DNA of 64,000 nucleotides, taken from assembly GCA_015233565.1 (NCBI GenBank), contig JADFXM010000043.1, positions 44 through 64,043 on the forward strand, in the 5' to 3' direction. The notes under the pieces were generated by a model, which was given only the letters and a program-made list of their open reading frames with translations, did not search any database and was not told the origin of the DNA. A program made the translations under genes and the position numbers. Positions 25,831 to 52,158 of this stretch are shown here, in pieces (position 1 is the stretch's first letter; every line of letters begins with the position of its first letter). Origin of the DNA: Candidatus Rifleibacteriota bacterium (GTDB lineage: Bacteria; Muiribacteriota; Ozemobacteria; Ozemobacterales; Ozemobacteraceae).

Positions 25831-27597
25831 ATGCAATCCAGCTGTTCATTCAGATTTGTGAACAAAAAATTAATCATGAACTTACGGGATCGGGTTTGTG
25901 AGACATCCGAGGAATTGATTTCAAGTGAATTGTTTGTTGAAGTTCTTGAACGTTACGTCAACAAGCTCAGGAGCAAACGGGTTTCACTTCTGAAAATATT
26001 CGGAAAACCTGTTGAAGAAATAGGGAAAGATGACATAAATGAGCTTGTGAAAGTTTTTTGTGTGTTGGTGAAAATGCCAATCAATGCAGTCACAAAACTG
26101 ATTGAAAATTCTGAATGCTTTGCCCGAAATCCCTCGCTTCTACTATCTTTTGTCGACGGTCTGTACAATTTCTGGAGACAATTCGAACGTTTTATAATAT
26201 GTGATTCAACTGGTGACCATCTTCATAAACGTCCATATAGAACATTCAATTCCACGATTGAGTCGCTTACCCACCTTGTACTGCAAACTTATCGAAGTGC
26301 AGGCGAGAATATCAGCGGACAGCACCCGAACATTTATCGCCAGGTTACAGCTGGAGCAGAAGTGGCTGTTATCGCGCTTCCAAGGGAAGTGAAAATTTCC
26401 GGTGGAAGTTATCAACAGCTGAATGCCGTTCCGATGATAAGGCAATTGCTGCTTTATCCGCCCCTACTTTTAAATCCACCGATGAATAAACGCACCGGAA
26501 AATTTGAAAAGGTAGAAAAGAATCCTCTGGAATTGCTTAAAATAAATCCTTCCGAATGGTTGTGCTATCCGGCCAAAGTTGGTATCCAACTGATTCTGGT
26601 ATATATACACCAGAATTTCTTTGAACTCGGATTCTCTTTGTGCAATTTATTCGAACTCGCTGACGACGATTTTTTAAATCGCCCAGTTGACGCCGTATTT
26701 CTTTTCGGGGTTCCGGGAAATGAGCTCGACTCAATGGCTTCGATTCCCACTGTGTTTTTTGATGACCATGAAAAAGGATTGATTTCAGCTGCATGTCCGA
26801 GTAAAGACGAGTTTGGTTATTTTGGTTATTTGAAAAAAATGGTACTGACGCTTCATAATATTAAAGTGATGAAAAACAAAAAAATGCCATATCATGGAGC
26901 AATGATAAATATTACAACCAAAGGAAACAGGTCAAAAACAATTCTTATCATCGGTGATACAGGCGCGGGAAAATCCGAGACCATCGAAGCGCTACGGATA
27001 TTTGGGGATTCACAGATAGAAGAAATCACCATAATTGCTGATGACATGGGATCACTCGACATTACATCTGAGGGAGATGTAGTTGGCTATGGCACAGAAG
27101 TGGGAGCATTTGTGAGACTCGATGATCTTCAGGCAGGTTATGCTTTTGGGCAGCTTGATCGTTCAATAATAATGAATCCCAATCAAACTAACGCCAGAAT
27201 AATCCTTCCGGTAACTACATATGACAAAATCGTAGCAGGATTCAAAGTGGATACCGTTTTATACGCGAACAATTACGAGCAGGTAGATGGGGAGCATCCC
27301 ATAATAGAGCGCCTCCGCACTCCTCAGAACGCTCTTAATGTTTTTCGCAAAGGAACAGCGATGAGCAAAGGGACCACAACTTCAACGGGACTTGTACATA
27401 CTTACTTCGTAAATGTCTTTGGCCCTGTTCAGTATTGTGATTTGCACGATGAAATTGCAAAAACTTACTTTGAAAAATTTTTTGAAAACAACATCTTCGT
27501 CGGACAGTTGCGAACCAGGCTCGGTATCAGTAATTGGGAAAGAAGAGGGCCTGAAGAGGCTGCCAAAGCCCTCCTACTTCAGCTAGCAGAAGCTTAA
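25831..27597 (+). CDS. Hypothetical protein with a C-terminal HPr kinase/phosphorylase-like P-loop domain
   Basis: The segment YHGAMINITTKGNRSKTILIIGDTGAGKSETIEAL...IADDMGSL aligns with the HprK Walker-A region (HG..v...G.GvLItGdSGiGKSEtalEL...ADD). The roughly 350-aa N-terminal part is unassigned. Confidence 0.5.
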   Translation: MQSSCSFRFVNKKLIMNLRDRVCETSEELISSELFVEVLERYVNKLRSKRVSLLKIFGKPVEEIGKDDINELVKVFCVLVKMPINAVTKLIENSECFARNPSLLLSFVDGLYNFWRQFERFIICDSTGDHLHKRPYRTFNSTIESLTHLVLQTYRSAGENISGQHPNIYRQVTAGAEVAVIALPREVKISGGSYQQLNAVPMIRQLLLYPPLLLNPPMNKRTGKFEKVEKNPLELLKINPSEWLCYPAKVGIQLILVYIHQNFFELGFSLCNLFELADDDFLNRPVDAVFLFGVPGNELDSMASIPTVFFDDHEKGLISAACPSKDEFGYFGYLKKMVLTLHNIKVMKNKKMPYHGAMINITTKGNRSKTILIIGDTGAGKSETIEALRIFGDSQIEEITIIADDMGSLDITSEGDVVGYGTEVGAFVRLDDLQAGYAFGQLDRSIIMNPNQTNARIILPVTTYDKIVAGFKVDTVLYANNYEQVDGEHPIIERLRTPQNALNVFRKGTAMSKGTTTSTGLVHTYFVNVFGPVQYCDLHDEIAKTYFEKFFENNIFVGQLRTRLGISNWERRGPEEAAKALLLQLAEA

Positions 27598-27731
27598 GAA
27601 ATACAACCAAAATGCTACTGTGTCTAATTTCCTGACTTCCCGCTAAAAGTTTAACCTACATTTAATGATGGCTTTGTAGAGAATGAGGAATTCCCAAATT
27701 TTGCTAAAGATCGAATAAAAAGGAAAACGCG

Positions 27732-29402
27732 GTGAACGGTTCTCAAACATTGATAAAAGCTCTTGAAAAAAATGGTGTCGAATACATTTTTGGTCTCCCT
27801 GGTGGAGCCATTATCTCTATCTTTGATGCTTTGGTCGAAACGACAATCAAGTTGATTATGGTAAGGCATGAACAAGGGGCAACCCATATGGCTGATGGTT
27901 ATGCACGGGCCTCAGGAAAACCTGGGGTTGTTTTGGTGACCAGCGGCCCAGGGGCTACGAATGCAGTGACCGGTATCATGACGGCCCAGATAGACTCTGT
28001 TCCGATGGTGGTGATTTGTGGACAGACGTCCACTTCGAACTTAGGATTGGATGCCTTTCAGGAGACGGATATTTTCGGCATCACTATGCCGGTTGTGAAG
28101 CACAACTACCTTGTCAATGACCCCGATGATATCCCTCGCATTGTTTCGGAAGCCTTCTATATCGCCAGCACAGGGCGACCCGGGGTAGTTCTCATTGAAA
28201 TTCCTAAGGATGTAAGTTGTTGTGAGTGTCATATCAACGAGAATGCAAAGTTGGATGTAGAAATCCCAGGCTATCGCCTTCCTCCTCCACCCGACGAAAA
28301 AAAAGTGAAAAATTTGGCCAAACTGATTCTGGAAAGCAAAAAGCCCCTTCTGCTCATTGGCCATGGGGCTATTATTTCCGGAGCCCAGGATGAGATCAAA
28401 ACCTTGGCGGAAACGTTGCAGTCTCCCGTTGTCAATACTCTTTTGGGGAAAGGTGGTTTTCCGGAGACTCATCCCTTGTCTTTGGGTATGGCGGGAATGC
28501 ATGGTTCTTATTACGCTAATTATGCCTTGATGAATTGCGACATGATACTTTCCATCGGCTCACGGTGGAACGACAGAGTAAACGGTGATTCTAAGAATTT
28601 CTGCCCTAACGCTAAAAAACTCCATATTGATATTGATCCCGCTGAGATAAATAAAATTGTTTTTCCCGATGGTTTTTGCATTGCTGATGCTAAGGCAGTC
28701 GTGAGAGACCTCATTCCTCAATTAAAGACACTGGATACAAACGATTGGCTCAATGATCTGAGGGTTCAAAGGGAAAATCACCCCCTGATGCCTGCTGAAG
28801 GTGGACTTAATGCGGCTTGCGTTATCCAAGAGTTTTTCAAGCTTTCGAAGGGGAAAGCCATAGTCGCCACTGACGTAGGTCAGCACCAAATGTGGGCGGC
28901 TCAATTTTTTCTCATTGATGAAAAAAACACCTGGTTGTCTTCGGGTGGCGCGGGAACGATGGGTTATGGTTTTCCTGCAGCCATCGGTGCGCAGCTTGCT
29001 TGCCCGGAAAAGACCGTCATTGCCTTTGTGGGAGATGGTGGATTTCAAATGACTTTTGCCGAGCTAGCCACGGCAGCCAACAATAAATTGCCGATAAAGA
29101 TAGTCATCCTCGATAATAAATACTTGGGAATGGTCAGGCAGTGGCAGCAAATTTTCTTTGACAACCGCCTGAGCGGAGTGGAATTGGACGGAAATCCGGA
29201 TTTTGTAAAAATCGGTGAGGCTTACGGCATAAAAGGCTTTCATCTCAAGGAAAGGAAAGACGTTGAGAGTATTTTAAGCCAAGCTCTTCAGTATAAAGAA
29301 GGCCCATGTCTTATACATGCGGAGGTGCTTAGGCAGGAAAATGTCTTTCCGATGATTCCCGCAGGACGCTCAGCCCATCATATAATGATGGAAGAACCTT
29401 GA
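27732..29402 (+). CDS. ilvB: Acetolactate synthase large subunit (biosynthetic)
   Basis: Typical ThDP-enzyme N-terminus ([22 protein letters not shown]) and the GDGGFQM ThDP-binding motif. Followed by a regulatory subunit gene. Confidence 0.9.
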
Positions 29403-29471
29403 TTTTTTGCCTTCTTCAATGGGAGTTTGCAGTTTAATGTGGTTTTTCTAAGTGATGATAGGAGAAAAAAG

Positions 29472-29990
29472 ATGTCTACACCAACACAATATCAAAATTC
29501 CGAAAATTTACACAATTTCAGCCTGATCGTGGCCAATAATCCGGGGGTATTGGTGAGAGTGGCTCTGATCTTTTCTCGAAGGGGGTATAATATCGAATCT
29601 CTTGTGGTATCACCGACCAAGTTACAGAAATTTTCTCGAATGATGATCACAGCCCGTGGAGAGCCTTCTCGTTTTGAACAGATAACGAAACAAATTTCCA
29701 AACTTGTGGATGTCATTGAGGTCGAAGAGCACAACAAAGAAGACATTCTCAAAAAAGAACTCATGTTCGTGAAAGTGGGTACCCAAGAGGATAAAAGAAA
29801 GGAACTTTTTCAGATCGTCAGCGAAAATCACGGAGAGATACTGGACTTTAATTTTCAGTTTACGGTTTTGCAGTTTATCAACAATAAAGACCGCCTTGAT
29901 GGGATTATGAGCAGGCTTGAGGGATTTGAAATCTTTGAAGCAGCACGCAGCGGATGTCTTGCCATGTCGCTCAATCATTCATGCCTTTAG
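29472..29990 (+). CDS. ilvN: Acetolactate synthase small (regulatory, ACT-domain) subunit
   Basis: ACT-domain signature (SLIVANNPGVLVRVALIFSRRGYNIESL). The start was chosen at ATG 29472, preceded by GGAG. The track ORF begins upstream at 29427. Confidence 0.8.
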   Translation: MSTPTQYQNSENLHNFSLIVANNPGVLVRVALIFSRRGYNIESLVVSPTKLQKFSRMMITARGEPSRFEQITKQISKLVDVIEVEEHNKEDILKKELMFVKVGTQEDKRKELFQIVSENHGEILDFNFQFTVLQFINNKDRLDGIMSRLEGFEIFEAARSGCLAMSLNHSCL

Positions 29991-30020
29991 TTCAGAATCA
30001 CAAAAAACAAGGAGAACAAA

Positions 30021-32758
<2,738 letters not shown>

Positions 32759-32766
32759 GAGTTTTT

Positions 32767-32830
32767 GTGAGCGAAAAAAAATGTAATCATCTTTGACACC
32801 TCCCTGCGCGGTGGTGAACAGGCACTGGAA
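32767..32830 (+). pseudogene. leuA: 5' remnant of 2-isopropylmalate synthase gene (leuA), truncated after ~20 codons
   Basis: The translation VIIFDTSLRGGEQALE matches the LeuA N-terminus (E. coli [20 protein letters not shown]). An in-frame GTG start is recovered only if one A is removed from the A8 run at 32774-32781. Similarity ends after EQALE, and a stop follows about 65 codons later. Confidence 0.6.
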
Positions 32831-32997
32831 TTTTGGGCACACCAAAGGATCTATTTCGTAAATCTTTTGGATCAATCGGGCCCAGAAGCTGTGAAAAAAT
32901 ACCAAAAATCGGAAGAAAATCCAAGTGCTAAATGTCACAAACGACTGTTGGCGGGGTTATTCTGTAGTAATGGGTTGACAGCAATTAAGAGTTAAAA

Positions 32998-33036
32998 ATC
33001 CCCATAATCCCAATGAAGGATTGCGGGGATTTTTTC
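32998..33036 (+). terminator. Intrinsic terminator at the end of the ilv operon
   Basis: Imperfect stem-loop atcccc-at-aatcc[caatgaa]ggatt-gc-ggggat followed by tttttcttttt. Confidence 0.6.
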
Positions 33037-33074
33037 TTTTTCTGTTCGCGGTGGGCTAAGTACATACAAGAAAA

Positions 33075-33315
33075 AATATGCTTTAATTCGAAGTTCCAAA
33101 CGTGGTACATTGATAGAGCTCTGATGGAGCAGTGCAAGAAGGTGAAATTCGCGTTAATCAAAAAAGGACCCTGTCCATGTGAACCTTTGGATGTTCTCTT
33201 GAGATCATGATCTTCAAGGCATTACATGGACAGTTTTTTTTGGTGAAAAATAGGCTCAAACAATCATCCTACTTGTGCTTTATGCCATTTTAGACTTGGA
33301 ACTTCGGTTTAATGG
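33075..33315. repeat. ~240-bp repeat (family D), left copy of an inverted pair
   Basis: Its reverse complement is about 90-95% identical to 46488-46730. It contains a 10-bp inverted repeat ctgtccatgt...acatggacag (33171-33233) that encloses the palindrome gatcatgatc, flanked by an A-run and a T-run. Confidence 0.8.
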
Positions 33316-33413
33316 AAAGCTTGTTTTCTGCATCATTTTTTTGAAAGCATACAAGCAAAAAAAAGATTGAGCACAAATTAACTACGCTCAATCCCTCAAA
33401 TTGTGGGGAAATT

Positions 33414-33571
33414 ATACCAATCCCAAAAAATATGTGCATCACCCCAAGAACATTGATTTGATCAAAATGAAGTTGGATCGGTATATTTTCTGTATTTTCC
33501 AAGAAAACACGAAACTTTCATGAAAATAAGAGGCCCTTAGTGGATGGTTGAAGCATTCATTTCCGTCAGAC
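33414..33571. repeat. Dispersed repeat family C copy
   Basis: Direct match of about 85% to 63843-64000, the end of the window. The ORFs 33290..33502(-) and 63737..63922(-) lie in the two copies and are probably non-coding. Confidence 0.7.
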
Positions 33572-35717: not shown

Positions 35718-37079
35718 TCACCAACAAAGTTGAAACGCTAGTTCCAACGCCTGGCTGGCGTTCAACCGCGGGTCGCAAAGCGTAACATAATTGCCGGCTG
35801 CAAGGTTCTCCTCGGTGATCTCCTGATCACCCCCCGTGCATTCAACGACATCACGGCCAGTCAGTTCGAAATGCACACCACCGGCGTATGTTCCTTCGCT
35901 CTTGTGAATGTCAAAGAACTTCCGGACTTCGGCGAGTATATTCTTGAACGGCCGGGTCTTGAAGCCATTAGGCGCCACGACCGTATTTCCGTGCATCGGA
36001 TCGCAGCACCAGACGACATTCCGACCTTCACGACGTATGTGTCGAATTAACGTGGGCAAAGCCTTTTCAATCGTTTGATATCCCATTCTGGTTATGATAG
36101 TCAAGCGACCGGGATCGTTATCGGGGTTCAGGATATCGATCAGCTGCAGTAGCTCTTCCGAGGTGATACTGGGGCCGCATTTCAAGCCGATCGGGTTCCC
36201 CACTCCCCTCAGAAACTCCACGTGGGCGCCATCCGGTTGCCGGGTGCGTTCACCGATCCATAACATATGGGCTGAGCAGTCATACCAGTCACCTTCGTAA
36301 CCATGCGCCGGTCGTGCGGTGGTGCTGTCCCTTCGGGTCAATGCCTGTTCGTAATTTAGCAACAACGCTTCGTGCGAGGTATAGTATTCCACGACGCGGA
36401 TTTGGGGACTTGTTTCGGCCGTGATTCCGACCGCAGACATGAAGCCCAAGATCTCGTCCAAGCGGTTCGCGATGCTTTCGTATTGCGTCGACTGCGTGCT
36501 GCGTTTGACGAAATCCAGATTCCAATGATGAACCTTATGAAGATCGGCGTAACCACCATAAGCAAAAGCGCGAAGCAGATTGAGCGTCGAGGCCGCCTGG
36601 GAGTAAGCCCGTAGCATGCGCCCTGGCTCCGCCACGCGGGCGTCGCCATCGAATTCATAACCGTTTATTATATCGCCACGGTAGCTGGGCAAAGTAACGC
36701 CATCGCGGCTCTCGGTATCACCGGACCGTGGTTTCGCGAATTGCCCCGCCATCCGCCCGACTTTCACGACCGGCACCTTCTGCCGGAACATCAGAATTAC
36801 CGCCATCTGTAATAGGACACGAAACGTGTCACGGATGGTATTAGCGTTGAAGTCATCAAAACTTTCCGCACAGTCCCCTCCTTGAAGCAAAAACGCACGA
36901 CCCTGGCAGACCTTCGCCAGTCGCTCCTTAAGCTGTCGTGCTTCTCCGGCGAAAACCAACGGCGGGTACTGCGACAACTTCCGTTCCACGCAAGCTAAAT
37001 CCTTACTATCCGGATAAACGGGCACTTGTTGAATTCTTTTCTTCCGCCAGCTTTCGGGCGTCCAGATGATATTATTCAT
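35718..37079 (-). CDS. aroG: 3-deoxy-D-arabino-heptulosonate 7-phosphate synthase, class II (plant/actinobacterial type)
   Basis: 453 aa with the characteristic class II length and N-terminus (WTPESWRKK...VPVYPD...QGGDCAESF). Last gene of the high-GC operon. Confidence 0.9.
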
Positions 37080-37390
37080 GAAACTTGCTTTCCTTTTTTC
37101 CGGGATTGGCGTTGAATTCTCAAAGACTCAGAATGGATCAGCCGCAGCAATGCACTAACGAAACGCTGGTCGAGCCCTAGGCTCATGGCCCAGTCAGAAC
37201 GGGTCGCAACCACTTCCTCCCATCGCGCCTTTTGAAAAGACCCCAGACTAATGGCTTCTTTCTCAACAATTATCTCATGCACTGCCGAGAAACGATCGGC
37301 CAACGCCCGTAGCAGACGTCGGTCGGCAGCATCCACACGTCTACGAAGCTTGCCAAGTCGAGCCTCTGGTGAAGTAGTCAAAGATCTCAT
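37076..37390 (-). CDS. Chorismate mutase (AroQ-class, monofunctional)
   Basis: 104 aa, all-helical. The segment [19 protein letters not shown] is CM_2-like. Start and stop overlap the neighbouring genes. Confidence 0.7.
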
Positions 37391-38256
37391 CGACGGTTTC
37401 CTCCATCGGGAGTTTGAATACGCGTCAGTATTCTACCTATTTCGTTGGCCTGTTCCATCAGACCGCGTGTCCGCCGCCCTTCCACCAGGCTTTCACGAAA
37501 ATCCTGGAGGTGCTCAATGTATGAGTCCAAGGCGGCTGTCACATTACTTAAATTCTGGCGGAAGATAGGCGCCCACATATCCGGCGAACTTTTGGCCAGA
37601 CGGACGGTAGACTCAAAACCGCCGCTAGCGAGGTCAAAAATAGTCGCGGTGTTTTTTTCCTGGTCCAGTACGGTGTTAGCCAGAACAAAGGAACTAATGT
37701 GCGACAGATGACTGACAAAAGCCACATGTAGATCGTGCGCCATCGAGGTCATGTAGACCAGACGCATTCCCAGCACGGAATACATTTTTTCTACACGCTG
37801 CAAATGCTGGAGGTCACTCGCATCCCGGTTGCAAATCACAGCAACGCGCTGGTCAAAAAGTCCCTGCAAAGCAGCACTGGGCCCGGAGTGTTCCGTTCCT
37901 GCCATTGGATGCGCCGGGACGAATTGGCGTCTTCTGAAATGTCCTTCCACGGACTTGCAGATCAGATCCTTGGTCGAACCCACGTCAGTGACCGTAGCGT
38001 TTCCGGAGGCCAGCTCAAGTACACGGGGGAGGGTTTCGAGAATAGCGTCGACCGGCAACCCCAGTATGATCAGATCCGCAGAAGGCACAGCCGCTTCGAG
38101 CGGCAGAACCTCGTCAACGAGCGAAAGCTCAAGCGCTTTATCGGCATGTTCCCGAGAAACGTCCGAACCCAAAATCCGTCGGGCAAACCCGCGTGCACGC
38201 AGGTCCAATCCAATGGAACCACCGATCAATCCCAAACCAATAATTGCTACTTTCAT
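37387..38256 (-). CDS. tyrA: Prephenate dehydrogenase
   Basis: 289 aa. Rossmann N-terminus MKVAIIGLGLIGGSIGLDL and a TyrA-type catalytic domain. Confidence 0.85.
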   Translation of the reverse strand: MKVAIIGLGLIGGSIGLDLRARGFARRILGSDVSREHADKALELSLVDEVLPLEAAVPSADLIILGLPVDAILETLPRVLELASGNATVTDVGSTKDLICKSVEGHFRRRQFVPAHPMAGTEHSGPSAALQGLFDQRVAVICNRDASDLQHLQRVEKMYSVLGMRLVYMTSMAHDLHVAFVSHLSHISSFVLANTVLDQEKNTATIFDLASGGFESTVRLAKSSPDMWAPIFRQNLSNVTAALDSYIEHLQDFRESLVEGRRTRGLMEQANEIGRILTRIQTPDGGNRR

Positions 38257-38265
38257 ATCAACCTT

Positions 38266-39441
38266 TCAGGCCAACCTTCTCAGGGCTTCGGATAGTCGCT
38301 CGCGAGAAGCACATAACGACGCACGCGCATACCGGATGCCATTCGATCCAAAGACCATGCCAGGCGTGAAAAATATGTGCCGGGACTCCAGCAGCTCGTC
38401 AAAAAAAACTTCGACATCGGGAATCGCTTCTGGCGCACGGGCCCAAACGAAAAGACCCACCTGCTTCCGATCATAGCTGAACCCCAACCGGTCGAAAATC
38501 CGCCAGACCAACTCGCGGCGTTCCTGATAGATCTCATTTCGTGCGCGATGCCAATCATTGTCTGTCGCCAATGCGGCAACCGCACCATGCTGCACGGGGA
38601 GAAACATTCCGGAATCGACGTTGCTTTTCACCCGCAGAGTAGCATCGATCACTTCTTTCTCCGCCAAAAGAAGCCCGACCCGCCAACCGGCCATGTTGAA
38701 GGACTTACTAAGCGAGTTGAGTTCCGCACAAAACGGCGATCCGCCCGCGCATCGTAACAGACTAAGCGGCGAACTTTGGTTCAAAACCAAACCGTATGGA
38801 TTGTCGTTGCAGAGCAAAATACGACGCTTCCAACAGAATTCCGCCAGAGCATGAAAAGCACCTTCCACACCGCTCGCTCCCGTGGGCATATGCGGATAGT
38901 TGATCCACATCAATTTGCACCCTCCGAGATCCTGGCGTTCAAGCTCCTTGATATCCGGCAACCAGGCATTCGCTTCGCTCAAATTGTACCGATGAACCCT
39001 CGCACCCAATAACCGCGCTGCTGAAGAGTAGGCAGGGTAGCCGGGATCGGGTATAAGTACACCATCTCCTGGATTCAGCAACCCCATCGAAAGATAGAAA
39101 ATTCCTTCTTTCGATCCCAGCAGGGGAAGAAGCTGGCTTTCAGGATCGACGGAAACAGAATATGTGCGCTCATACCAATTCGCCATAGCGACACGAAGCT
39201 CCGGAGTCGATCTGTATGATGCATAACCGTGATTATTTCCGCACGCCAGTGACGATGAAGCAGCTTCGACAGCCCGAGGCGGCGGAGGTAAATCAGGACT
39301 TCCGATTCCGATATTTATGACGTCATGACCTTTGGCACGCAGTTGACGGATCAACTCAAGCTTGCGCGAAAAGTAATACTCGGTAACCTCGCTCAACCGA
39401 TCGGCAAATTGGATGCTTACAACCATGGACGATCTCCACAC
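38266..39441 (-). CDS. Class I/II pyridoxal-phosphate aminotransferase (probable aromatic/prephenate aminotransferase)
   Basis: 391 aa. Motifs NYPHMPTG and SKSFNMAGWRVG (the PLP lysine region). Embedded in the Phe/Tyr operon. Confidence 0.8.
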   Translation of the reverse strand: MWRSSMVVSIQFADRLSEVTEYYFSRKLELIRQLRAKGHDVINIGIGSPDLPPPPRAVEAASSSLACGNNHGYASYRSTPELRVAMANWYERTYSVSVDPESQLLPLLGSKEGIFYLSMGLLNPGDGVLIPDPGYPAYSSAARLLGARVHRYNLSEANAWLPDIKELERQDLGGCKLMWINYPHMPTGASGVEGAFHALAEFCWKRRILLCNDNPYGLVLNQSSPLSLLRCAGGSPFCAELNSLSKSFNMAGWRVGLLLAEKEVIDATLRVKSNVDSGMFLPVQHGAVAALATDNDWHRARNEIYQERRELVWRIFDRLGFSYDRKQVGLFVWARAPEAIPDVEVFFDELLESRHIFFTPGMVFGSNGIRYARASLCASRERLSEALRRLA

Positions 39442-40256
39442 CGATATTCTCCGAACTGGACTAAATTCAAAGCCATATCAGGCAACTCAGCCAAAGCCGC
39501 CAAGTATTGCGCACGGTCATTCCATTCAATATCCACATGAAAAGAATACTTATAAGGCTTGCCGAGGACTGGCACCGATTGAATTTTGGTCAGATTGATA
39601 GCGTGACGGCTGAAAATCCCTAGAATCGCGGACAAACTGCCAGGTTCATCAGGGGACTCGAAACACAGGGTAGCCTTGTTCGCGCCCTCGGGAACCAAAT
39701 AATCCTCCCGTCGACAGATAGCCAGAAATCTGGTGTAATTCTGGCGATTTGACTCTATTCCCTCACGCAGAAGTTCAAGGCCATAGGTTTGCGCGGCCAA
39801 CCGACTAGCGATGGCGGCATACCCCCGTAGGCCCTTGTCTCCGATATGTTTCGCGCTTTCTGCGGTGTCCGCGGCTTCCAGGATTTTCATTCCCGGAAAA
39901 CCGGAAAGAAATTCATCGCACTGGGCGAGGGCCATGGGGTGTGATTGTACAAACTTAATCTCGGAAAGCTGTTGTCCGGGTAATGCTAACAGACACATTT
40001 CAATCCGCAAGTAGATCTCCCCGAGAATGCAGAAATCATGATTTTTCAATAAGGAGTAATTAGGAAGAATGCTGCTGGCGATCGAATTTTCGATGGCCAT
40101 CATACAAACATCCACTTCCTTGCGATCCAGAGTAAGACAAAGCGACTTGAAAGACGCGCACTCAACCGGCTCAATTGACTCGGAAAAATAAGCACGTGCC
40201 GCTACATCATGAAAACAGGCTCGAACGCCCTGAATACCAACCTTACAAGACTTCAT
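39417..40256 (-). CDS. pheA: Prephenate dehydratase (PDT + ACT domain)
   Basis: 279 aa. A PDT domain followed by a C-terminal ACT-like region. Its start overlaps the aminotransferase gene. Confidence 0.85.
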
Positions 40257-41359
40257 AAACGCGCACCCCGATTTCTGAGAAAATGATCAGCGATAGTGAT
40301 GGCAGCCATCGCTTCAACGATCGGCACTGCCCGCGGCACCACGCACGAATCATGGCGTCCACGCCCAGGCAGCACCGTAGTTTGCCCTTGCCTATCCAAC
40401 GTTGTCTGTGATTTGAGCAAGGTCGCGACAGGTTTGAAGGCGACCCGAAAATCAATATCCATACCATTGCTAATGCCACCTTGAATACCCCCCGAATGGT
40501 TAGTGCTCGTTTCGGTTCGCTCCCCAACGCGCACAAAAAGATCATTATGCTCGGAACCGCGCAACGACACGCCACTAAAACCCGAGCCATATTCAAACCC
40601 TTTGACGGCATTGATACTCAGCATCGCTTTTCCGAGATCCGCATGCAATTTATCGAAAACCGGATCCCCCAAGCCTACCGGACAACCCCGAATGATGCCG
40701 TTGACAACTCCACCGGTGGTATCACCGTCCTTTTTCAGTGCTTCGATGAATTCTATTATTTTTGCAGCCGTCCCGGGGTCAGGGCATCGCGTAATGTTAG
40801 TCTCTGAGAACGCATCCATAAATTGTTTGTCGGCGAATAACTTATCGGCCAACATCGCATCGTGGGGCATAGATATCCGGCCGACCTGTGAAACATAGGC
40901 TCTAATCGCGACATTGAATTCCCCTAGCAAGAGCTTTGCCACTGCACCTGCGGCAACTCTCGCGGCAGTCTCACGAGCAGAGGAACGCCCACCCCCGAAA
41001 TGATCCCGCACCCCATATTTCTTTTCATAAGTGAAATCCGCGTGCGAAGGCCTATACGCATCGCCATTATGCGAGTAATCATCTGGCCGCTGGTCTTCAT
41101 TAATGATCAGAGCGGTCAGAGGCGTCCCAGTCGTCCGACCTTCAAAAAGTCCGGAAACAAACCGAACCCTATCAAGTTCGTTGCGCGAAGTGGTCAACTT
41201 TGATTGTCCCGGCCGACGGCGATCAAGCTCCGATTGCACGAACCCCAGATCGACCGCCAATCCAGCCGGACAACCGTCGATAACAACTCCAATCAGTTCA
41301 CCATGTGACTCTCCGAAAGTGGTTACTCGAAATAGCTGTCCGAAAGTATTTCCTGCCAT
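40253..41359 (-). CDS. aroC: Chorismate synthase
   Basis: 368 aa. N-terminus [18 protein letters not shown] and other conserved AroC blocks. Confidence 0.95.
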
Positions 41360-41362
41360 TTT

Positions 41363-41812
41363 CTAGTCCTTCTTTTCGAGCAATAACTCAAGAGCGTTCG
41401 CATAGGAAAGCCAGCCCAAACCAGAAATCTGTGCAAGACAAACCGGTGCGATAACTGACACCTGACGGAAACTCTCGCGTTTTTTTATATCACTGAGGTG
41501 AACCTCGATCGTCGGCACCGCAATTGCCGCAACGGCGTCTCTCAGCGCGTAGGAATAATGTGTATACGCACCGGGATTGAATACCACGCCATCGGCCCAC
41601 CGCCGGTTTTTGTGCAAAAGGTCAATCAGCGTGCCCTCGCTGTTAGATTGGTGAATTCTAAGGATGCAACCATGAGATCTGGCATTGGCACGCAGTTTTC
41701 TGTTTATTTCAGCGAGCGTCAAAGTACCATAGACATCGGGTTCACGTTCGCCCAAAAGATTCAAATTTGGACCGTGCAAAATCAAGATACGCCGATCACT
41801 TTCGTTCCTCAT
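41363..41812 (-). CDS. aroQ: 3-dehydroquinate dehydratase, type II
   Basis: 149 aa, with ILILHGPNLNLLGEREP...HQSNSEG. Confidence 0.9.
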   Translation of the reverse strand: MRNESDRRILILHGPNLNLLGEREPDVYGTLTLAEINRKLRANARSHGCILRIHQSNSEGTLIDLLHKNRRWADGVVFNPGAYTHYSYALRDAVAAIAVPTIEVHLSDIKKRESFRQVSVIAPVCLAQISGLGWLSYANALELLLEKKD

Positions 41813-42945
41813 TTTAATCCTCCAATGAGCTTCAGGGCAGATCGAAGATGCCGCCTGTTGATATTACCATCCGTTTTCACGCGCCCTGCCCTTCCGTCCA
41901 AGAGCACAAAATGAAGCTTCCCACCGCGGTTCTTTTTGTCCTTGGACATTATAACATGAAGTTCTTCTAGCGTAATCCCTGCCGGCAGAGCGGGTATTTC
42001 CAACCGCGCGAGGGTCGAATCCAAGTCCATTCTTTTTTTGGAACTCAGCAATCCCCGGACTTCAGAAAGGGCCAAAGCAAAACGCATGCCCCAAATTATC
42101 GCTTCACCGTGCTGGAACATCTTATATTGCGTGATGCTCTCCAGGGCATGGCCGAAGGTGTGGCCAAAATTAAGCACCTCACGAATCCCCAAGCGATCAA
42201 GTTCGTCTTGCGCTACTACACTGCATTTCCATTCAAGCGACCGCTGTATGGCTGGACCGAGCAGCAAAGCATCGCGAGCCAAAAGCCGCTCGAGATTTTT
42301 ATCAAGACTTCGATAAAACGCAGGATCGAATACCAATCCGTATTTCAGTATTTCACCTAAACCGGAGACAATTTCCCGACGCGACAGGGTCGAAAGGAAA
42401 TTCAAATCACAAATCACCCCATCCGGTTGATGAAAGGCGCCAATCAAATTTTTGCCCGAAACATGATTTATTCCAGTTTTGCCACCCACGGCGCTGTCGA
42501 CCTGCGCGAGGAGCGTCGTCGGAACACCGATCCAGGAAATACCGCGCAGATAAGTCGCCGCAACAAAACCGGCCGCGTCTCCGACGGTCCCTCCACCCAG
42601 AGCAAAAAGAACCGAGTGGCGGTCCGCCCCGTGTTTAAGCAGTTCACCATACAAACTATTGATCGAGGAAATTTCCTTGAGGGACTCTCCTGCCTGAACG
42701 GGAATCTCATGCACCTTCCAACCCGCACCCCGCAGCGCTTTTCGCAACGATGACATTGCGTCAATCAGGATCTCGTCATAGACCACAAAAGCCCGAGCCA
42801 GATTGCCAGATCGTCCGTCAACCTTTTTGAACAACTCTATCGCTCCAGCGCCAATAAGGATGTCATAAGATCGGCTCACCGCGGACGCTTTTCCGAAAAA
42901 CTGTTTGACCCGACAGAACGGTGAATGAACAGATTTGAAAATCAT
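41809..42945 (-). CDS. aroB: 3-dehydroquinate synthase
   Basis: 378 aa. NAD-binding GGGTVGD and metal-binding His residues of the DHQS family. Confidence 0.9.
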   Translation of the reverse strand: MIFKSVHSPFCRVKQFFGKASAVSRSYDILIGAGAIELFKKVDGRSGNLARAFVVYDEILIDAMSSLRKALRGAGWKVHEIPVQAGESLKEISSINSLYGELLKHGADRHSVLFALGGGTVGDAAGFVAATYLRGISWIGVPTTLLAQVDSAVGGKTGINHVSGKNLIGAFHQPDGVICDLNFLSTLSRREIVSGLGEILKYGLVFDPAFYRSLDKNLERLLARDALLLGPAIQRSLEWKCSVVAQDELDRLGIREVLNFGHTFGHALESITQYKMFQHGEAIIWGMRFALALSEVRGLLSSKKRMDLDSTLARLEIPALPAGITLEELHVIMSKDKKNRGGKLHFVLLDGRAGRVKTDGNINRRHLRSALKLIGGLK

Positions 42946-44381
42946 GAAAATTCCCCCTCTTCGGTCAAACGAATTATCACAGCCGCTACCGCGTTAGGCT
43001 CAAGATTGTCGGTTTGGACACGATGGGATGCGCGCAGGTAAATCGCCTGCCGTGCTTTTACCAGATTTTCAAGCCTGGAGTCCACCGAAATCTGACCGTC
43101 GGATTTTGCTGGCGACAAAAGCGGCCGAACCTTCAGCTCATTTTCGCTGACCTGGAGCCGTCGGACCAGGGCCGATGTCTTGGCCTCCAGATACACAAGG
43201 ATTCCAGACCTCTCGACAGCTGCCAAGGTTCCGTCAGTCATGAGCGCCCCTCCACCGAGAGCTACAACTGTCCTAGTCCGCGCGGCCGAGTTTAAGACAG
43301 CTTTCTTTTCAAGAACGCGAAAAGCCTGTTCGCCTTGCTGTTCAAAAATCTCGCTAACCGATAACCCACTCTCTGCTTCTACAAGGCAATCCGTGTCGAC
43401 AAAATCCCAGCCAAGACGTTGGGCTAGAATAGAGCCAACGGTGCTCTTGCCGGCTCCCATGGGACCACAAAGAAAAATCGGGGGGGCGAGGGCTCGACGT
43501 AACTCCGGCATGATTGATGGAAGAATTTCTCCTAATGACTCTGAAGTCGAGTTCGTCCAGATTTTCCAACTCTCAATCGCTTGGTGCACCAGCATGTCAA
43601 GACCTGCCACGCAACGAAAGCCAAGATGGCTCGCCAGCGAAAGAAACGGCGTCCGCTCGGGATTGTAAATCAAGTCAAAAGCAAGCGCGTCGGGTTCCGG
43701 TGAAATCCGTGCCAATCCGGAAAAAAACTCTGAGGTTGCGTTAATGTCCCCCTCCATGGCATATCCTCGCATGCCAACAGGTGTGGTGTTAACAACCAAG
43801 CCCACTCGAGTCAAAACGGCGGGCACAACCCCATAAAAGCGCGTCTTGGGAAAAAGAGGGGTAAACGCCGATATCAAAGCCTTGGATCGAGCCTGATCAC
43901 GGTTCAATACAGCCACGGATGCAACGTGACGCCAGCCAAGAGCGTGAAGCACCGCCTTGGCTGCTCCCCCAGCTCCCCAGACAACGACGTTACAATCGTG
44001 AAGCTTTATCTTACGATCATCGAGAACCCTAAGGAAACCGATGTAATCAGTATTATGCCCGATAAGCTTACCGTCCTTCAAATGTACCAAGTTGACGGCG
44101 CCAATCGCTCGGGCCTGAACAATGACTTCGTCCAACTCGGCCAGTATAGCTTCTTTATGGGGCACGGTCACGTTGATGCCGACAAACTCTGGGCAGCATC
44201 GCAGCTCATCGAGATAAGTGCGAAGATCACGGGGCAAAACCTCGACAGCGGAATAAGTGAAATCGCGCATGCCTAGACGTTCGGCCAGAATCAAATGGAG
44301 CACCGGCGAAAGGGAATGAGAAATCGGATTCCCTATTACCGCCCCTTTTAAACCCCCTTTTGTTCCACTCATGGCCGGCAA
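42942..44381 (-). CDS. aroE-aroK: Bifunctional shikimate dehydrogenase / shikimate kinase (AroE-AroK fusion)
   Basis: The N-terminal 270 aa are AroE-like (GVIGNPISHSLSP, NVTVPHK, the VVVWGAGGAAKA Rossmann). The C-terminal roughly 190 aa are AroK-like with Walker A IFLCGPMGAGKSTVG and DTD. It is a single ORF. Confidence 0.85.
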   Translation of the reverse strand: MPAMSGTKGGLKGAVIGNPISHSLSPVLHLILAERLGMRDFTYSAVEVLPRDLRTYLDELRCCPEFVGINVTVPHKEAILAELDEVIVQARAIGAVNLVHLKDGKLIGHNTDYIGFLRVLDDRKIKLHDCNVVVWGAGGAAKAVLHALGWRHVASVAVLNRDQARSKALISAFTPLFPKTRFYGVVPAVLTRVGLVVNTTPVGMRGYAMEGDINATSEFFSGLARISPEPDALAFDLIYNPERTPFLSLASHLGFRCVAGLDMLVHQAIESWKIWTNSTSESLGEILPSIMPELRRALAPPIFLCGPMGAGKSTVGSILAQRLGWDFVDTDCLVEAESGLSVSEIFEQQGEQAFRVLEKKAVLNSAARTRTVVALGGGALMTDGTLAAVERSGILVYLEAKTSALVRRLQVSENELKVRPLLSPAKSDGQISVDSRLENLVKARQAIYLRASHRVQTDNLEPNAVAAVIIRLTEEGEFS

Positions 44382-45667
44382 AGCCTTTCAAGTGTAGCGA
44401 AAAATTCCGGATAGGAAATTCCGACGCATTCTGCGTCATGAATCGTGGTATCCCCTTCTGCCACCAGTCCGGCGATGCTGAAGGCCATCGCGATCCGGTG
44501 ATCATGAAAACTACGAATATCCGTGCCGCGAAGGGACTGCCTACCCGCGAGCGTGAAGCCATCTTTCCGAGTCTCGATGCTGGCACCCATGGCACGAAGA
44601 TTGACAGCAACCGCTTCAATACGGTCACTTTCCTTCACACGCAGCTCTTCGGCACCTTCGACGACGGTCTCGCCGACCGCCTGACTTGCAAGCACCGCAA
44701 GCATAGGCAACTCGTCGATCAGCGCCGGTATCTCGGACACAGTTACGCGAATTCCTTTCAGATTACTAAAACGGGCCTCGATACAACCGACTGGCTCAGG
44801 AACTTCCGATTCAAGCTCGACAACAATATTAGCACCCATTCGCTGCAGGGCACGAATGAATCCGATGCGAGTGAAATTTAATGAGATGTTTTCAAGCCGC
44901 AAATGAGCACCTGGCACTAAACACGCGGCAGCCAGCCAAAACGCTGTGGCAGAGGGATCGCCAGGAACCAGGACTCGATTAGCGACAAGAGTTTGACCAC
45001 CCGTAATGCTTAATTCGCTCGAACTTTCCTGTAGTTTTGCTCCGAAGTGTCGAAGCATTCTTTCCGTGTGATCGCGGCTGTCGATCTGGCCTGTGATACG
45101 AGTCACACCCTCGGCCAATAACCCGGCCAAAAGTACTGCGGTCTTAAGCTGCGCGCTGGCTACAGGAAGCGAATAGTTTATTCCATGCAACTTGGAGCCT
45201 TGAATCGTGAGTGGTGCATAATCATCGGCGGTCAATTCTATCCGCGCACCCATCAAAAGCAAGGGCGCGGCCACCCGACGCATTGGGCGCCTAACCAACG
45301 ATGCGTCACCAGACAAAGTGGCGGTGATATCGCCACCGGCAAGCACGCCCATGAGCGTGCGAATTGTCGTACCTGAGTTCCCACAATCCAGCACACGCAC
45401 GGGCGATGTGAACCCTTTCACACCCAAGCCTTCTACGGTTGTCAAGGTCGTTCCGTCAGATGCGCCGGAGCGAATTATGGAAACACCGAGATCGCCAAGA
45501 CAACGAGCGGTAGATTGGACGTCTCCGCCAGTTAAGATATTAGTGATTTCGGTCCTGCCCTCGGAAAGAGCACCCAGGATGAGCGCCCGATGCGATATGG
45601 ATTTGTCGCCCGGGATATTTGGTTTACCTCTAAAACAAGCAGCCCTGTGCACAATTTGATTGGCCAT
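44369..45667 (-). CDS. aroA: 3-phosphoshikimate 1-carboxyvinyltransferase (EPSP synthase)
   Basis: 432 aa. Motifs GDKSISHR and LDCGNSGTT. First gene of the operon. Confidence 0.9.
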   Translation of the reverse strand: MANQIVHRAACFRGKPNIPGDKSISHRALILGALSEGRTEITNILTGGDVQSTARCLGDLGVSIIRSGASDGTTLTTVEGLGVKGFTSPVRVLDCGNSGTTIRTLMGVLAGGDITATLSGDASLVRRPMRRVAAPLLLMGARIELTADDYAPLTIQGSKLHGINYSLPVASAQLKTAVLLAGLLAEGVTRITGQIDSRDHTERMLRHFGAKLQESSSELSITGGQTLVANRVLVPGDPSATAFWLAAACLVPGAHLRLENISLNFTRIGFIRALQRMGANIVVELESEVPEPVGCIEARFSNLKGIRVTVSEIPALIDELPMLAVLASQAVGETVVEGAEELRVKESDRIEAVAVNLRAMGASIETRKDGFTLAGRQSLRGTDIRSFHDHRIAMAFSIAGLVAEGDTTIHDAECVGISYPEFFATLERLCRP

Positions 45668-46196: not shown

Positions 46197-46487
46197 AAAA
46201 GAATGTATGAATCCTCTCTGGAGGATTTACATTAGATCCAGCGACCGTGCCTGTTTTTGGGGCAATTCTCCCATCGAGGCTAACAGCAGCTTTTAGAGTG
46301 AGCCGAGGTCGTCCATCTTTGTGGAAAGCAGAGTTCCTAGCGGGTCTTTCCATCAGATTAATGCATCAACGCTCACAATCAGCAATAAATCATCGGCTCC
46401 AAATAAATTTTGGTGGATATTATACTTTACTGATGAATGAAATTCTATACTTTTTTAAATTTTTGTCCAGGAGATTTATGATTCCTA

Positions 46488-46730
46488 AACCGAAGTTCCA
46501 AGTCTAAAATGGCATAAAGCACAGGTAGGATGATTGTTTGAACCTATTTTTCCCAAAAAAACCTGTCCATGTAATGCCTTGAAGATCATGATCCAAAGAG
46601 AACATCCAAAGGTTCACATGGACAGGGTCCTTTTTTGATTAACGCGAATTTCTCCTTCTTGCACTGCTCCAATCACAACTCTATCAATGTACCGCGTTCG
46701 GAACTTCGGCTTAAATGCCGCGTTCCTTTT
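46488..46730. repeat. ~240-bp repeat (family D), right copy (inverted relative to 33075-33315)
   Basis: Reverse-complement match to the left copy, including the internal hairpin cctgtccatgt...acatggacagg flanked by A/T runs. Confidence 0.8.
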
Positions 46731-49404: not shown

Positions 49405-52158
49405 ATGATGGAGAAAATTGAATGCCTGGTAAACTCCGGAGTCTCCTTTTACACTCCGGAAAATGATTTGCAGTTTCCCGACGCATTATTGTTCAAAACC
49501 TGGACATTTCGTGTCTTACAATCCCCAAAAGGCGCCATTTCTCTTCAATTAGGCGCAACTCCAATCATTGATGCCCTTGCCGAAGGGAAAGACCCCCTGA
49601 TCGACATCGGCCAACTTTCTCTTCGGTTTCAGGATGTTTTAAATATTTGTACAGGGAAATGGCTTCCGCTTCCCTTCTCACGTAAGGGAGCGGAAGAATC
49701 GGTTTCACGAAGCAAAGATTGGGTAAGACTTTTCTTGCACAAACCTCCGTTAAAAAACGATGCAAACATTTTTCGGTATGTACTTGCTTTTGACACGCTC
49801 GTCAATTCAACGGAAACTTCTGATAATCCCGGAAGAGATCTTTTGGGATTTTTCCCCGAAGACGTTGGTCTGCCTTTTGAGTTAAACCCAGGCTCAACCG
49901 GATTCTGGCAGACTCCAACTCTTCTAAACTGGATCAAAAACATTTTCAAGGAAATTCCGGCAGAAGGAGCCGATCCAATGCCTCCGCATATCGGAAGTCT
50001 GGCTGCCTTTATGACGCTGGTTGACGGGCTTAAACAGGCAGATATTATCCCAGAGATAACCTTTTTGAATCCTGAAGGCCAAAACATCGACGCTCATTTA
50101 ATTCTTGATCTGGGAAACAGCCGCGCCTGCGGGATTATCGCCGAACAAGCCCCAGGGCAGGGAGTAAATCTCGATGAATGTTGCAAGCTTGAAATTCGAG
50201 ATTTGAGCGAACCTACTCAAACATACACTGAGCCATTTGATACGTCTTTCAAATTCCGCCCTCCGCTCTTTTTTGATCCGAATCAAGGAGCTCCTCACGC
50301 TGGGGCTGGTTTTTTCTGGCCCAGCCTTCTTCGTCTGGGGCGCGAAGCTGCAAACCTGGAACCCTCGGACGTAGGCGACACTGGTATGTCAAGCCCCAAG
50401 CGATATTTATGGGATAACCAGCAACGACATTTTCCCTGGTATTTCAACCTTCCCGAGGCAAACCTCGGCAAAAAAATAAACGCTCCTTTCCTCAAATTCC
50501 TTGACGAAAATGCTGTTTTTCGCGGAGACAAAGCCCAACCCCCATTTGAACCATGTTATCCACCAAGTTCAATGATGGTTTTTTTGATTCTGGAAGTCCT
50601 GAATCACTGTTATTCTCAAATCAATTCGTTTTCATTTCGAAAATCCCGTGGACATCGTCTTTCAAAACGTGTTTTACGGAATATTGTAATCACCACGCCT
50701 TCAGGTATGTCCGGTCCCGAAAGAGATATTTATCGGGAGCGCGCTCAATCGGCCATTGATCTCTATTTCCATGTGTTTGGCTGGCCGGAGGAAATGAAAC
50801 CCAAAATTCATCTTGAGTTTGATGAAGCCACCGCTGTGCAGCTTACATACCTGTATGGTGAAGTGAAACATCGCTTTTTAGGCAACGCCAAAGAAGTATT
50901 CGAAACACTCGGTCGCGAACGCGCCGCTGAACATGATCTTCGCAAACCCATTTTTCGGCTTGCAAGTATTGACATTGGCGGTGGAACGAGCGATTTGATG
51001 ATTGCCGAGTATAATTCATTGCCAGCTGAACCTTCCGGAGCACGTCAGAAAAAACTATTCTCCGAAGGCTTTTCAATAGCGGGCGATGAGATAGCAAAAC
51101 GCATAATCGAAAAGATAATTATTCGCCGCGTTTTTTCATGGGCGCAACAAAAAAATCAAAGAATTTCCTGGGAAGAATTTCAACTCTTCTTCGGCCCAGG
51201 GCGCGGGGGGCGGGACAAACATTTTATAGACATGAAAGCCGAACTCTGCCGCCAGGTCTGGATTCCAATGGCTCATCGCCACCTTGAATTCGCCGAACTG
51301 GAAACGGATGACACCGATTTGGAATTAGGATTCGATCAATTTTTTTTACGACGCTTGCCCGGCGCCAATGTGCTCGATTTCTTCGCGGAACACCTGAAAA
51401 AGGAATTTGACTGCGACATCACTCTCCCGGAAATTCCCTGGCAACTTTCGAAACGCCAAATCAATACAGTTATTGCCAATGTTATCGAAAATATTCTTCG
51501 AATTTTTTCCGAAGTAATCGCTCAATTTGATTGTGACGCGCTTATTTTGGGAGGAAAACCCTCGTCCTTACCAATCATTCGAGAGATTCTTGTGCGCCTG
51601 ATGCCCGTATCGCCGGAAAAAATCATCAGTTTGAAAGGATACCCGGTTGGAAGCTGGTACCCATTTTCCCAAAAAGGCGGAGGAATCTCCGACCCCAAGA
51701 CCACATGCGTCATGGGAGCCGCGGTCTGGTTGTTTTCAGAAAAACTGCGAAACCTCGACGGGTTGAACTTGATCACTGACCCCGACTCCATACAGGAACG
51801 GAAATGTTTCATTGGAACATTTTCTCCCGAAGATTTGAAAATTGACCAAATGGTCTTTCCCTCCGCTAACGGCGTTGTTGAAACGAATAAATCAGCTCTT
51901 TTGGGAATACGCCGTGTCGATTCAGAAGTTTGTCCAGTCAACCCAATTTGGGAGTTACTTCTTGATCGCGAAAACCTTAAAGGACAAGGTCCCTTCAAAG
52001 TCAAACTCGTACAGGATCCCAAACAGCGTGAGTGTTTGTCAATTGAAGGGCTCGAAGATGAGCGAGGAACGAAAGTTGACTCGCGTTTGGCGAAACTCAG
52101 GCTTCGCACCATGATAGCCGATCAATATTGGCTCGACACTGGTTCTTTCGATTTGTAA
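49405..52158 (+). CDS. Large (917 aa) Hsp70/actin-fold ATPase-domain protein
   Basis: Hsp70-NBD-like motifs in the canonical order: phosphate-1 HLILDLGNSRACGII, connect-1 IVITTPSGMSGPERDIYRERAQ (compare VITVPAYFNDSQRQATKDA), phosphate-2 ASIDIGGGTSDLMIAEY, adenosine DALILGGKPSSLPIIREIL. A roughly 230-aa N-terminal extension is unique. Confidence 0.8.
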   Translation: MMEKIECLVNSGVSFYTPENDLQFPDALLFKTWTFRVLQSPKGAISLQLGATPIIDALAEGKDPLIDIGQLSLRFQDVLNICTGKWLPLPFSRKGAEESVSRSKDWVRLFLHKPPLKNDANIFRYVLAFDTLVNSTETSDNPGRDLLGFFPEDVGLPFELNPGSTGFWQTPTLLNWIKNIFKEIPAEGADPMPPHIGSLAAFMTLVDGLKQADIIPEITFLNPEGQNIDAHLILDLGNSRACGIIAEQAPGQGVNLDECCKLEIRDLSEPTQTYTEPFDTSFKFRPPLFFDPNQGAPHAGAGFFWPSLLRLGREAANLEPSDVGDTGMSSPKRYLWDNQQRHFPWYFNLPEANLGKKINAPFLKFLDENAVFRGDKAQPPFEPCYPPSSMMVFLILEVLNHCYSQINSFSFRKSRGHRLSKRVLRNIVITTPSGMSGPERDIYRERAQSAIDLYFHVFGWPEEMKPKIHLEFDEATAVQLTYLYGEVKHRFLGNAKEVFETLGRERAAEHDLRKPIFRLASIDIGGGTSDLMIAEYNSLPAEPSGARQKKLFSEGFSIAGDEIAKRIIEKIIIRRVFSWAQQKNQRISWEEFQLFFGPGRGGRDKHFIDMKAELCRQVWIPMAHRHLEFAELETDDTDLELGFDQFFLRRLPGANVLDFFAEHLKKEFDCDITLPEIPWQLSKRQINTVIANVIENILRIFSEVIAQFDCDALILGGKPSSLPIIREILVRLMPVSPEKIISLKGYPVGSWYPFSQKGGGISDPKTTCVMGAAVWLFSEKLRNLDGLNLITDPDSIQERKCFIGTFSPEDLKIDQMVFPSANGVVETNKSALLGIRRVDSEVCPVNPIWELLLDRENLKGQGPFKVKLVQDPKQRECLSIEGLEDERGTKVDSRLAKLRLRTMIADQYWLDTGSFDL

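Follow-up and report, generated by a model that had tools for sequence, protein, structure and literature searches.

The ilvBNDC operon of this uncultured bacterium is followed by a decayed fragment of leuA, a pseudogene remnant that represents ordinary gene decay and involves no new system or mechanism. We consider it highly probable that a deletion took leuA from about codon 22 onwards, together with the leu genes that followed it in an ancestral ilv-leu operon, and that the short stub directly after ilvC is the decayed scar of that event; the evidence for the deletion comes from one contig of one metagenome-assembled genome (MAG). Except where a relative's locus is named, positions refer to the window, i.e. 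the whole stretch of 64,000 nucleotides that was analysed, which makes up practically all of a contig of 64,043 bp.

The intact ilvBNDC part of the operon lies on the plus strand at 27732–32758 and includes ilvB (27732–29402; TIGR00118, 1e-218), ilvN (29427–29990; NF008864, 1e-44), ilvD (30021–31718; TIGR00110, 1e-238) and ilvC (31736–32758; NF004017, 2e-166; protein MBF0546948.1), each a full-length match to an NCBIfam equivalog. The ilvC stop codon TAG (32756–32758) is overlapped by a Shine-Dalgarno sequence AGGAG (32757–32761) located 5 nt upstream of a GTG start codon (32767–32769, plus strand); this GTG is 8 bases past the ilvC stop, and five T's separate it from AGGAG. An A8 homopolymer, within which the frame shifts, follows at 32774–32781, all of these features being read directly from the sequence.

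Translated as written, the GTG frame yields a 9-codon ORF (VSEKKCNHL-stop, 32767–32796). Resemblance to LeuA is found in the +1 frame, which encodes VIIFDTSLRGGEQALE at 32783–32830 and reads AKKNVIIFDTSLRGGEQALE (also ...KKNVIIFDTSLRGGEQALE) before continuing through 54 unrelated codons to a TAA at 32993–32995. The sequence-only reading of this region had proposed that removing one A from the A8 tract restores the start, and this is correct: with one A taken out, the GTG frame gives VSEKNVIIFDTSLRGGEQALE... and stays open for 75 codons, as far as the terminator described below. We therefore describe the leuA 5' remnant (32767–32830, plus strand) as a GTG followed by S-E-K, a +1 frameshift in the A run, and NVIIFDTSLRGGEQALE, corresponding to approximately residues 1–21 of LeuA. 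In the ancestor the run probably had only seven A's (A7), belonging to the codons GAA-AAA-AAT (E-K-N), and one relative (L087) shows GAAAAAAT at the position equivalent to the A8 run; in view of these two observations, an A7 to A8 insertion is the most economical history.

Homology of the stub to LeuA was assessed with an HMM built from 120 LeuA homologues and searched against all 2,885 stop-to-stop pieces from the six frames of the window. The stub piece ranks first (E=6.3e-4, HMM positions 2–20) and the runner-up has an E-value of 2.2, both values being window-wide. The stub is also the best match in the window when relatives' LeuA proteins are used as tblastn queries (E=0.011), and when the frame-corrected peptide is compared with 24,736 Pfam families the sole match is to HMGL-like (E=0.23), which at 11.3 bits is below the cut-off of 29. 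In the stub the start codon and FDT are 8 residues apart, compared to 6–13 across the 120 LeuA proteins. The stub has the motif variant GEQAL, which is the form found in the relatives' clade, whereas most other sampled LeuA proteins carry GEQSPG; the motif sample was 80 loci with 58–63% identity, recovered by scanning a genome collection with generic back-translated ilvC patterns. The FDT..GEQ match could have proved non-homologous in the profile search; it did not, and we accordingly regard the stub as leuA by descent, at the syntenic site directly after ilvC and retaining a ribosome-binding site and a start codon of its own. A leuA stub of about 20 codons had been proposed at this site, and both its HMM span and its syntenic position bear this out, although the identity of 15 of 17 residues given for it was too high: the best value against any of the 120 LeuA proteins is 13/16.

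The closest other ilvC among 5.8 billion proteins is no more than 71% identical, so comparison with relatives at the DNA level is impossible and we compared the gene order of their ilv-leu loci instead. Five of these loci from three lineages (L082, L083 and L084; L085, from Pseudobacteriovorax; and L087) have the order ilvB-ilvN-ilvC-leuA-leuB-leuC-leuD, with leuA starting 27–53 nt past ilvC. Two others (L081, 10001–12969; L086, 5276–8206) are arranged as ilvBNC-leuCD, with neither leuA and leuB nor a stub, and a gap of 23 nt in L081; at a further locus (L088, 5737–15201) the order is ilvC-ilvD-leuB-leuA-leuCD. Because leuA is directly after ilvC in the nearest relatives, whose ilvC is about 70% identical, the stub sits where leuA belongs, and the comparison with the relatives' ilv-leu regions thus agrees with the identification of the stub. 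Gene order in these genomes indicates that the ilv-leu operon is the ancestral arrangement in the clade. The L088 locus has two further peculiarities, a 729-aa acetolactate synthase ORF ahead of ilvC that is possibly a fusion of the large and small subunits, and a short LeuA-like gene (402 aa) without a LeuA_dimer domain.

The order in the nearest relatives is the same as in the Bacillus subtilis-type ilv-leu operon (ilvB-ilvH/N-ilvC-leuA-leuB-leuC-leuD), and the window keeps ilvB, ilvN, ilvC and the leuA start signals in place. It differs from the B. subtilis type in having ilvD between ilvN and ilvC, and in that nothing is left after leuA codon 21. Upstream of ilvB, no T-box or leader attenuator was recognised by Rfam. 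The 134-bp gap ahead of ilvB contains a 7-codon ORF, MLLCLIS (27613–27636), with three Leu codons and one Ile codon; no terminator or antiterminator structure was found after it, and in view of the missing attenuator hairpin the ORF is probably a chance occurrence. Directly upstream of this gap is a 588-aa ORF (25831–27597) with no NCBIfam match and with weak P-loop-type Pfam matches at residues ~350–420.

Judged by its sequence, the stub is dead on four independent counts, i.e. the frameshift, the changed invariant residues, the loss of homology, and the lack of any other leu sequence in the 64 kb. The frame leading from the start codon is interrupted after 9 codons and similarity is lost after codon 21, and so the stub is both frameshifted and truncated, as it had first been read. 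The motif FDTSLRGGEQ is recognisable, but with a T to S change and with glycine in place of the metal-ligand aspartate, and the two residues changed are invariant in 34/34 and 120/120 LeuA proteins in two samples. The aspartate of this motif is a metal ligand, Asp81 in the M. tuberculosis LeuA (PMC5498780), and the stub thus has neither the invariant threonine nor the metal-ligand aspartate of the N-terminal motif. Identity to LeuA is 13/16 up to codon 21 and is at background level thereafter, placing the end of homology at ~32830, and the HMM alignment likewise ends at residue 21. Membership in LeuA was defined by an HMGL-like barrel (PF00682), HCS_D2 and LeuA_dimer (PF08502); only positions 2–20 are matched, and not the complete HMGL-like TIM barrel of ~260 residues, and the C-terminal LeuA_dimer domain has no match in any frame of 32831–33081 or in the rest of the window. 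Searches by tblastn and with the LeuA HMM revealed no leuA, leuB, leuC or leuD similarity elsewhere in any frame of the 64 kb, the HMM finding only the stub, and the rest of leuA and leuBCD are missing at this locus as had been claimed.

An alternative explanation for these features is an assembly artefact, either a chimeric join at ~32830 or a sequencing error in the A8 run, with the real genome having an intact leuA. The contig is of a short-read-style MAG and is a single observation (a cluster of 1) with no second sample, and homopolymers are error-prone with some sequencing technologies. However, both substitutions at residues invariant in 120/120 LeuA proteins are upstream of the breakpoint and are independent of both the join and the A run, and because two invariant residues including the catalytic aspartate are substituted, the gene was dead before any assembly step. 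There is also no repeat at the junction, the flanks have a tetranucleotide correlation of r=0.96, and the GC3 of amt, the gene beyond the terminator, is like the background (0.34). The assembly is not indel-prone, since 13/13 other homopolymers of at least 8 nt, including one in ilvB, leave the full-length ORFs that contain them intact. We therefore regard an artefact as very improbable. Illumina reads and metaSPAdes were used in a plausible source study (PMC7602337), although the link of the MAG to that study is a guess.

The sequence between the end of homology and the terminator is a 165-bp segment (32831–32995, plus strand) without recognisable homology that is open in the stub's frame to the TAA at 32993–32995. 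It has no Pfam match in any frame, no match to LeuA, LeuB, LeuC or LeuD by tblastn, and no match by blastn or tblastx to any of the relatives' loci that were fetched; Rfam gave no match to the region at E-values up to 1 and none in the whole window at gathering thresholds. Past codon 21, Smith-Waterman alignment to LeuA residues 19–100 is not significant relative to shuffles, and the other frames and the reverse strand show no LeuA homology. One stretch within the segment, SAKCHKRLLAGLFCSNGLTAIK (32927–32992), aligns with positions 200–220 of the LeuA HMM at -1.9 bits, where its counterpart in the HxH region of LeuA (SVHCHDDLGL...) is SVHCHDDLGLSVANSIMAIQ, and SAHCHNDLGLATANSLAALQ in PDB 3eeg; a lysine replaces the first histidine. 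Because 103 of 2000 shuffles score equally well (p ~0.05), we keep this stretch only as a possible LeuA remnant. If it were real, it would imply two deletions within leuA and not one.

The end of homology had been said to be followed by a terminator, and a strong candidate for an intrinsic terminator is indeed present on the plus strand at 32994–33041, with a stem at 32999–33029, an A run upstream, and UUUUUUCUUUUU following the stem. The hairpin (inverted repeat I8) has 13-bp arms and a predicted stability of -22.9 kcal/mol (z=-5.24), and none of 200 shuffles is as stable; it is GC-rich and directly precedes the U tract. With its GC-rich hairpin, U tract, upstream A run and location at an operon end it resembles rho-independent terminators, although it is positioned 235 nt past the last intact gene, and not directly after it. 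The ilvBNDC transcript most likely ends at this predicted terminator (33030–33041), with the stub contained in its 3' tail. A separate, orphan terminator-like hairpin with a 16-pair stem and a T run is located on the minus strand at 33361–33397; the 2.3 kb upstream of it contain no gene on that strand.

The stub's signals raise the question of whether it has been retained for a function, either as a short ORF translationally coupled to ilvC or as the coding sequence of a 75-aa peptide that would arise when slippage occurs at the A8 run. The Shine-Dalgarno sequence and GTG are intact, the -1-corrected frame is open for all 75 codons up to the terminator, and A8 runs are known slippage sites; as in programmed frameshifting, there is a slippery homopolymer (A8, 32774–32781) at the point of the frame change. 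The downstream product, however, comprises 17 LeuA residues followed by 54 without a homologue, and is not a functional conserved protein. The A run is moreover accounted for by ordinary E-K-N codons, and a 54-codon open frame at 39% GC is unremarkable. The 71-aa peptide is without a homologue among 1.84 billion representative proteins; a TPR-repeat protein is the single phmmer match in that set, its score is a sum over repeats, and we attribute it to chance. A retained function is thus extremely improbable.

Frameshifts in poly(A) tracts of endosymbionts are reportedly rescued by transcriptional slippage (described, it is said, by Tamas et al. in 2008), and the stub resembles these in that an A8 run occurs close to the gene's 5' end and the frame is off by one A. 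Unlike those cases there is nothing downstream to rescue, since the ORF is cut after 21 LeuA codons and is without the catalytic barrel and the regulatory domain. It is conceivable, but hardly to be expected, that the scar is translated after slippage by polymerase or ribosome as a 75-residue chimera (21 LeuA residues and 54 novel ones), and is a proto-gene arising from a pseudogene. A more modest version of this idea is that the scar may reflect a very recent leucine auxotrophy in a lineage that keeps valine and isoleucine synthesis and aromatic synthesis.

Downstream of the terminator is a segment bounded by inverted repeats, and the sequence-only reading had correctly located its start about 250 bp past the stub. 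The repeats are two copies of a MITE-like element, copy A at 33082–33313 (inverted repeat I2) and copy B at ~46484–46715, the latter inverted relative to the former and 94.6% identical to it. Copy A measures 232 bp and lacks a long ORF, its terminal inverted repeats are CGAAGTTCCAA and TTGGAACTTCG, and TTTAA is present on both sides; copy B is flanked by TTTAA and TTTAG, and there is no transposase in the window. The element is MITE-like in its small size (232 bp), terminal inverted repeats (~13–17 nt), lack of an ORF or transposase, presence in at least two copies and TTTAA flanks, but differs from described MITEs in having no family assignment and no parent transposase found in the window, and in that a target-site duplication is unproven. 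The two copies bracket a 13.2-kb segment containing amt and an aromatic operon, and recombination between them could invert this segment. A second dispersed repeat of ~150 bp (33414–33563 and 63843–63983; 81% identical, same orientation) has one copy between the terminator and amt, where 1.1 kb is free of genes, and the other near the contig end.

The aromatic amino acid supraoperon (35718–45667, minus strand) is complete and has ten genes, including those for class II DAHP synthase, prephenate dehydrogenase, an aminotransferase, prephenate dehydratase, chorismate synthase, dehydroquinase II, dehydroquinate synthase, a fused shikimate dehydrogenase-kinase and EPSP synthase. The fusion is a 479-aa ORF (42942–44381, minus strand), with shikimate dehydrogenase as its N-terminal part and shikimate kinase as its C-terminal part. 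GC3 in the aromatic operon is 0.50–0.62, compared to 0.32–0.44 in the rest of the contig and 0.34 in amt, which is at background. The nearest relatives of the operon's chorismate synthase are in the Bdellovibrionota at 70% identity, and are of the same kind as those of ilvC. Beyond copy B is a 917-aa protein of the SrfB family ('virulence factor SrfB', Pfam E=2e-151; 49405–52158), and the large ORFs after it may form an srfABC-like cluster.

The proximity of the repeat-bounded segment had suggested that the rearrangement that brought it in destroyed the leu genes, but this claim lacks support. The leuA breakpoint at ~32830 is 250 bp and the whole terminator upstream of MITE copy A, with unrelated sequence between, and 2.9 kb, including amt of native composition, separate it from the high-GC block; the relatives of the chorismate synthase are moreover like those of ilvC. 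A causal tie between the loss of the leu genes and the repeat-bounded segment is conceivable but thus not supported, nothing in the sequence pointing to one.

It is unlikely, though less so than an artefact or a retained function, that leuA was split and not deleted, such that an insertion, inversion or translocation at codon 21 left the rest of leuA and leuBCD elsewhere in the genome, either as a fragment or as a functional copy. Mobile-element activity is evident next to the stub from both MITE copies (33082 and 46484) and from the repeat at 33414–33563 and 63843–63983, the contig ends 31 kb downstream so that the rest of the genome is unseen, and the order of the leu genes in relatives is fluid (ilvBNC-leuCD in L081 and L086, and shuffled in L088). 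Against this, neither the two MITE copies nor any other part of the 64 kb contain a leu fragment, and no repeat boundary coincides with the breakpoint. Two short sequences at the second MITE copy and the gap at 45.5–47.1 kb were considered as leu remnants, the pentapeptide RIHTF and CHFRLGTSV, the latter inside the MITE, and were rejected as being at chance level. As weak evidence against a split, no LeuA attributed to this MAG is among the best 120 matches of a profile search of 5.8 billion proteins, a collection from which searches did retrieve both ilvC and aroC of the MAG, although we note that the LeuA search would overlook any LeuA or CimA that is divergent, as well as an unbinned contig.

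For the deletion, which we favour, we infer the following order of events, with a single deletion as the cause of the truncation. The ilv-leu operon of the ancestor would have had its leuA only a few bases past ilvC, and a deletion would have removed leuA from approximately codon 22 onward, plus whatever leu genes came after it. This would have left the leuA ribosome-binding site, start codon and 21 codons joined to unrelated sequence ending in a terminator. Released from selection, the scar would then have gained the A7 to A8 insertion, the T-to-S substitution, and the D-to-G substitution at the metal-ligand aspartate. Today the region would constitute only the untranslated 3' tail of the ilvBNDC mRNA, and the stub makes no enzyme. 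Bacterial pseudogene remnants formed through deletional bias are said to have been described by Mira, Ochman and Moran in 2001, and the stub is like these: only a short piece from the 5' end of a biosynthetic gene is left, it carries a homopolymer frameshift and catalytic substitutions, and small mobile repeats are nearby. Nothing sets it apart from such remnants, and it is notable only in that the adjoining ilv genes stay intact.

NCBI lists the MAG as Candidatus Riflebacteria, yet the nearest named relatives of its ilvC and chorismate synthase, and the LeuA type closest to the stub, are in the Bdellovibrionota/Oligoflexia, those named being Pseudobdellovibrionaceae, Pseudobacteriovorax, Oligoflexus and Bdellovibrionia. 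All of the nearest relatives are only ~70% identical, which makes this a deeply isolated lineage. These observations are of use mainly for annotating the genome and reconstructing its metabolism: the appropriate label for the locus is a leuA pseudogene fragment, and the end of the ilv operon should be placed at the ~33040 terminator. Should leuABCD also be missing from the rest of the genome, the organism would depend on leucine from outside, although it would still synthesise valine, isoleucine and the aromatic amino acids, and such a leucine requirement, if true, would be a small clue to the lifestyle of this uncultured bacterium.
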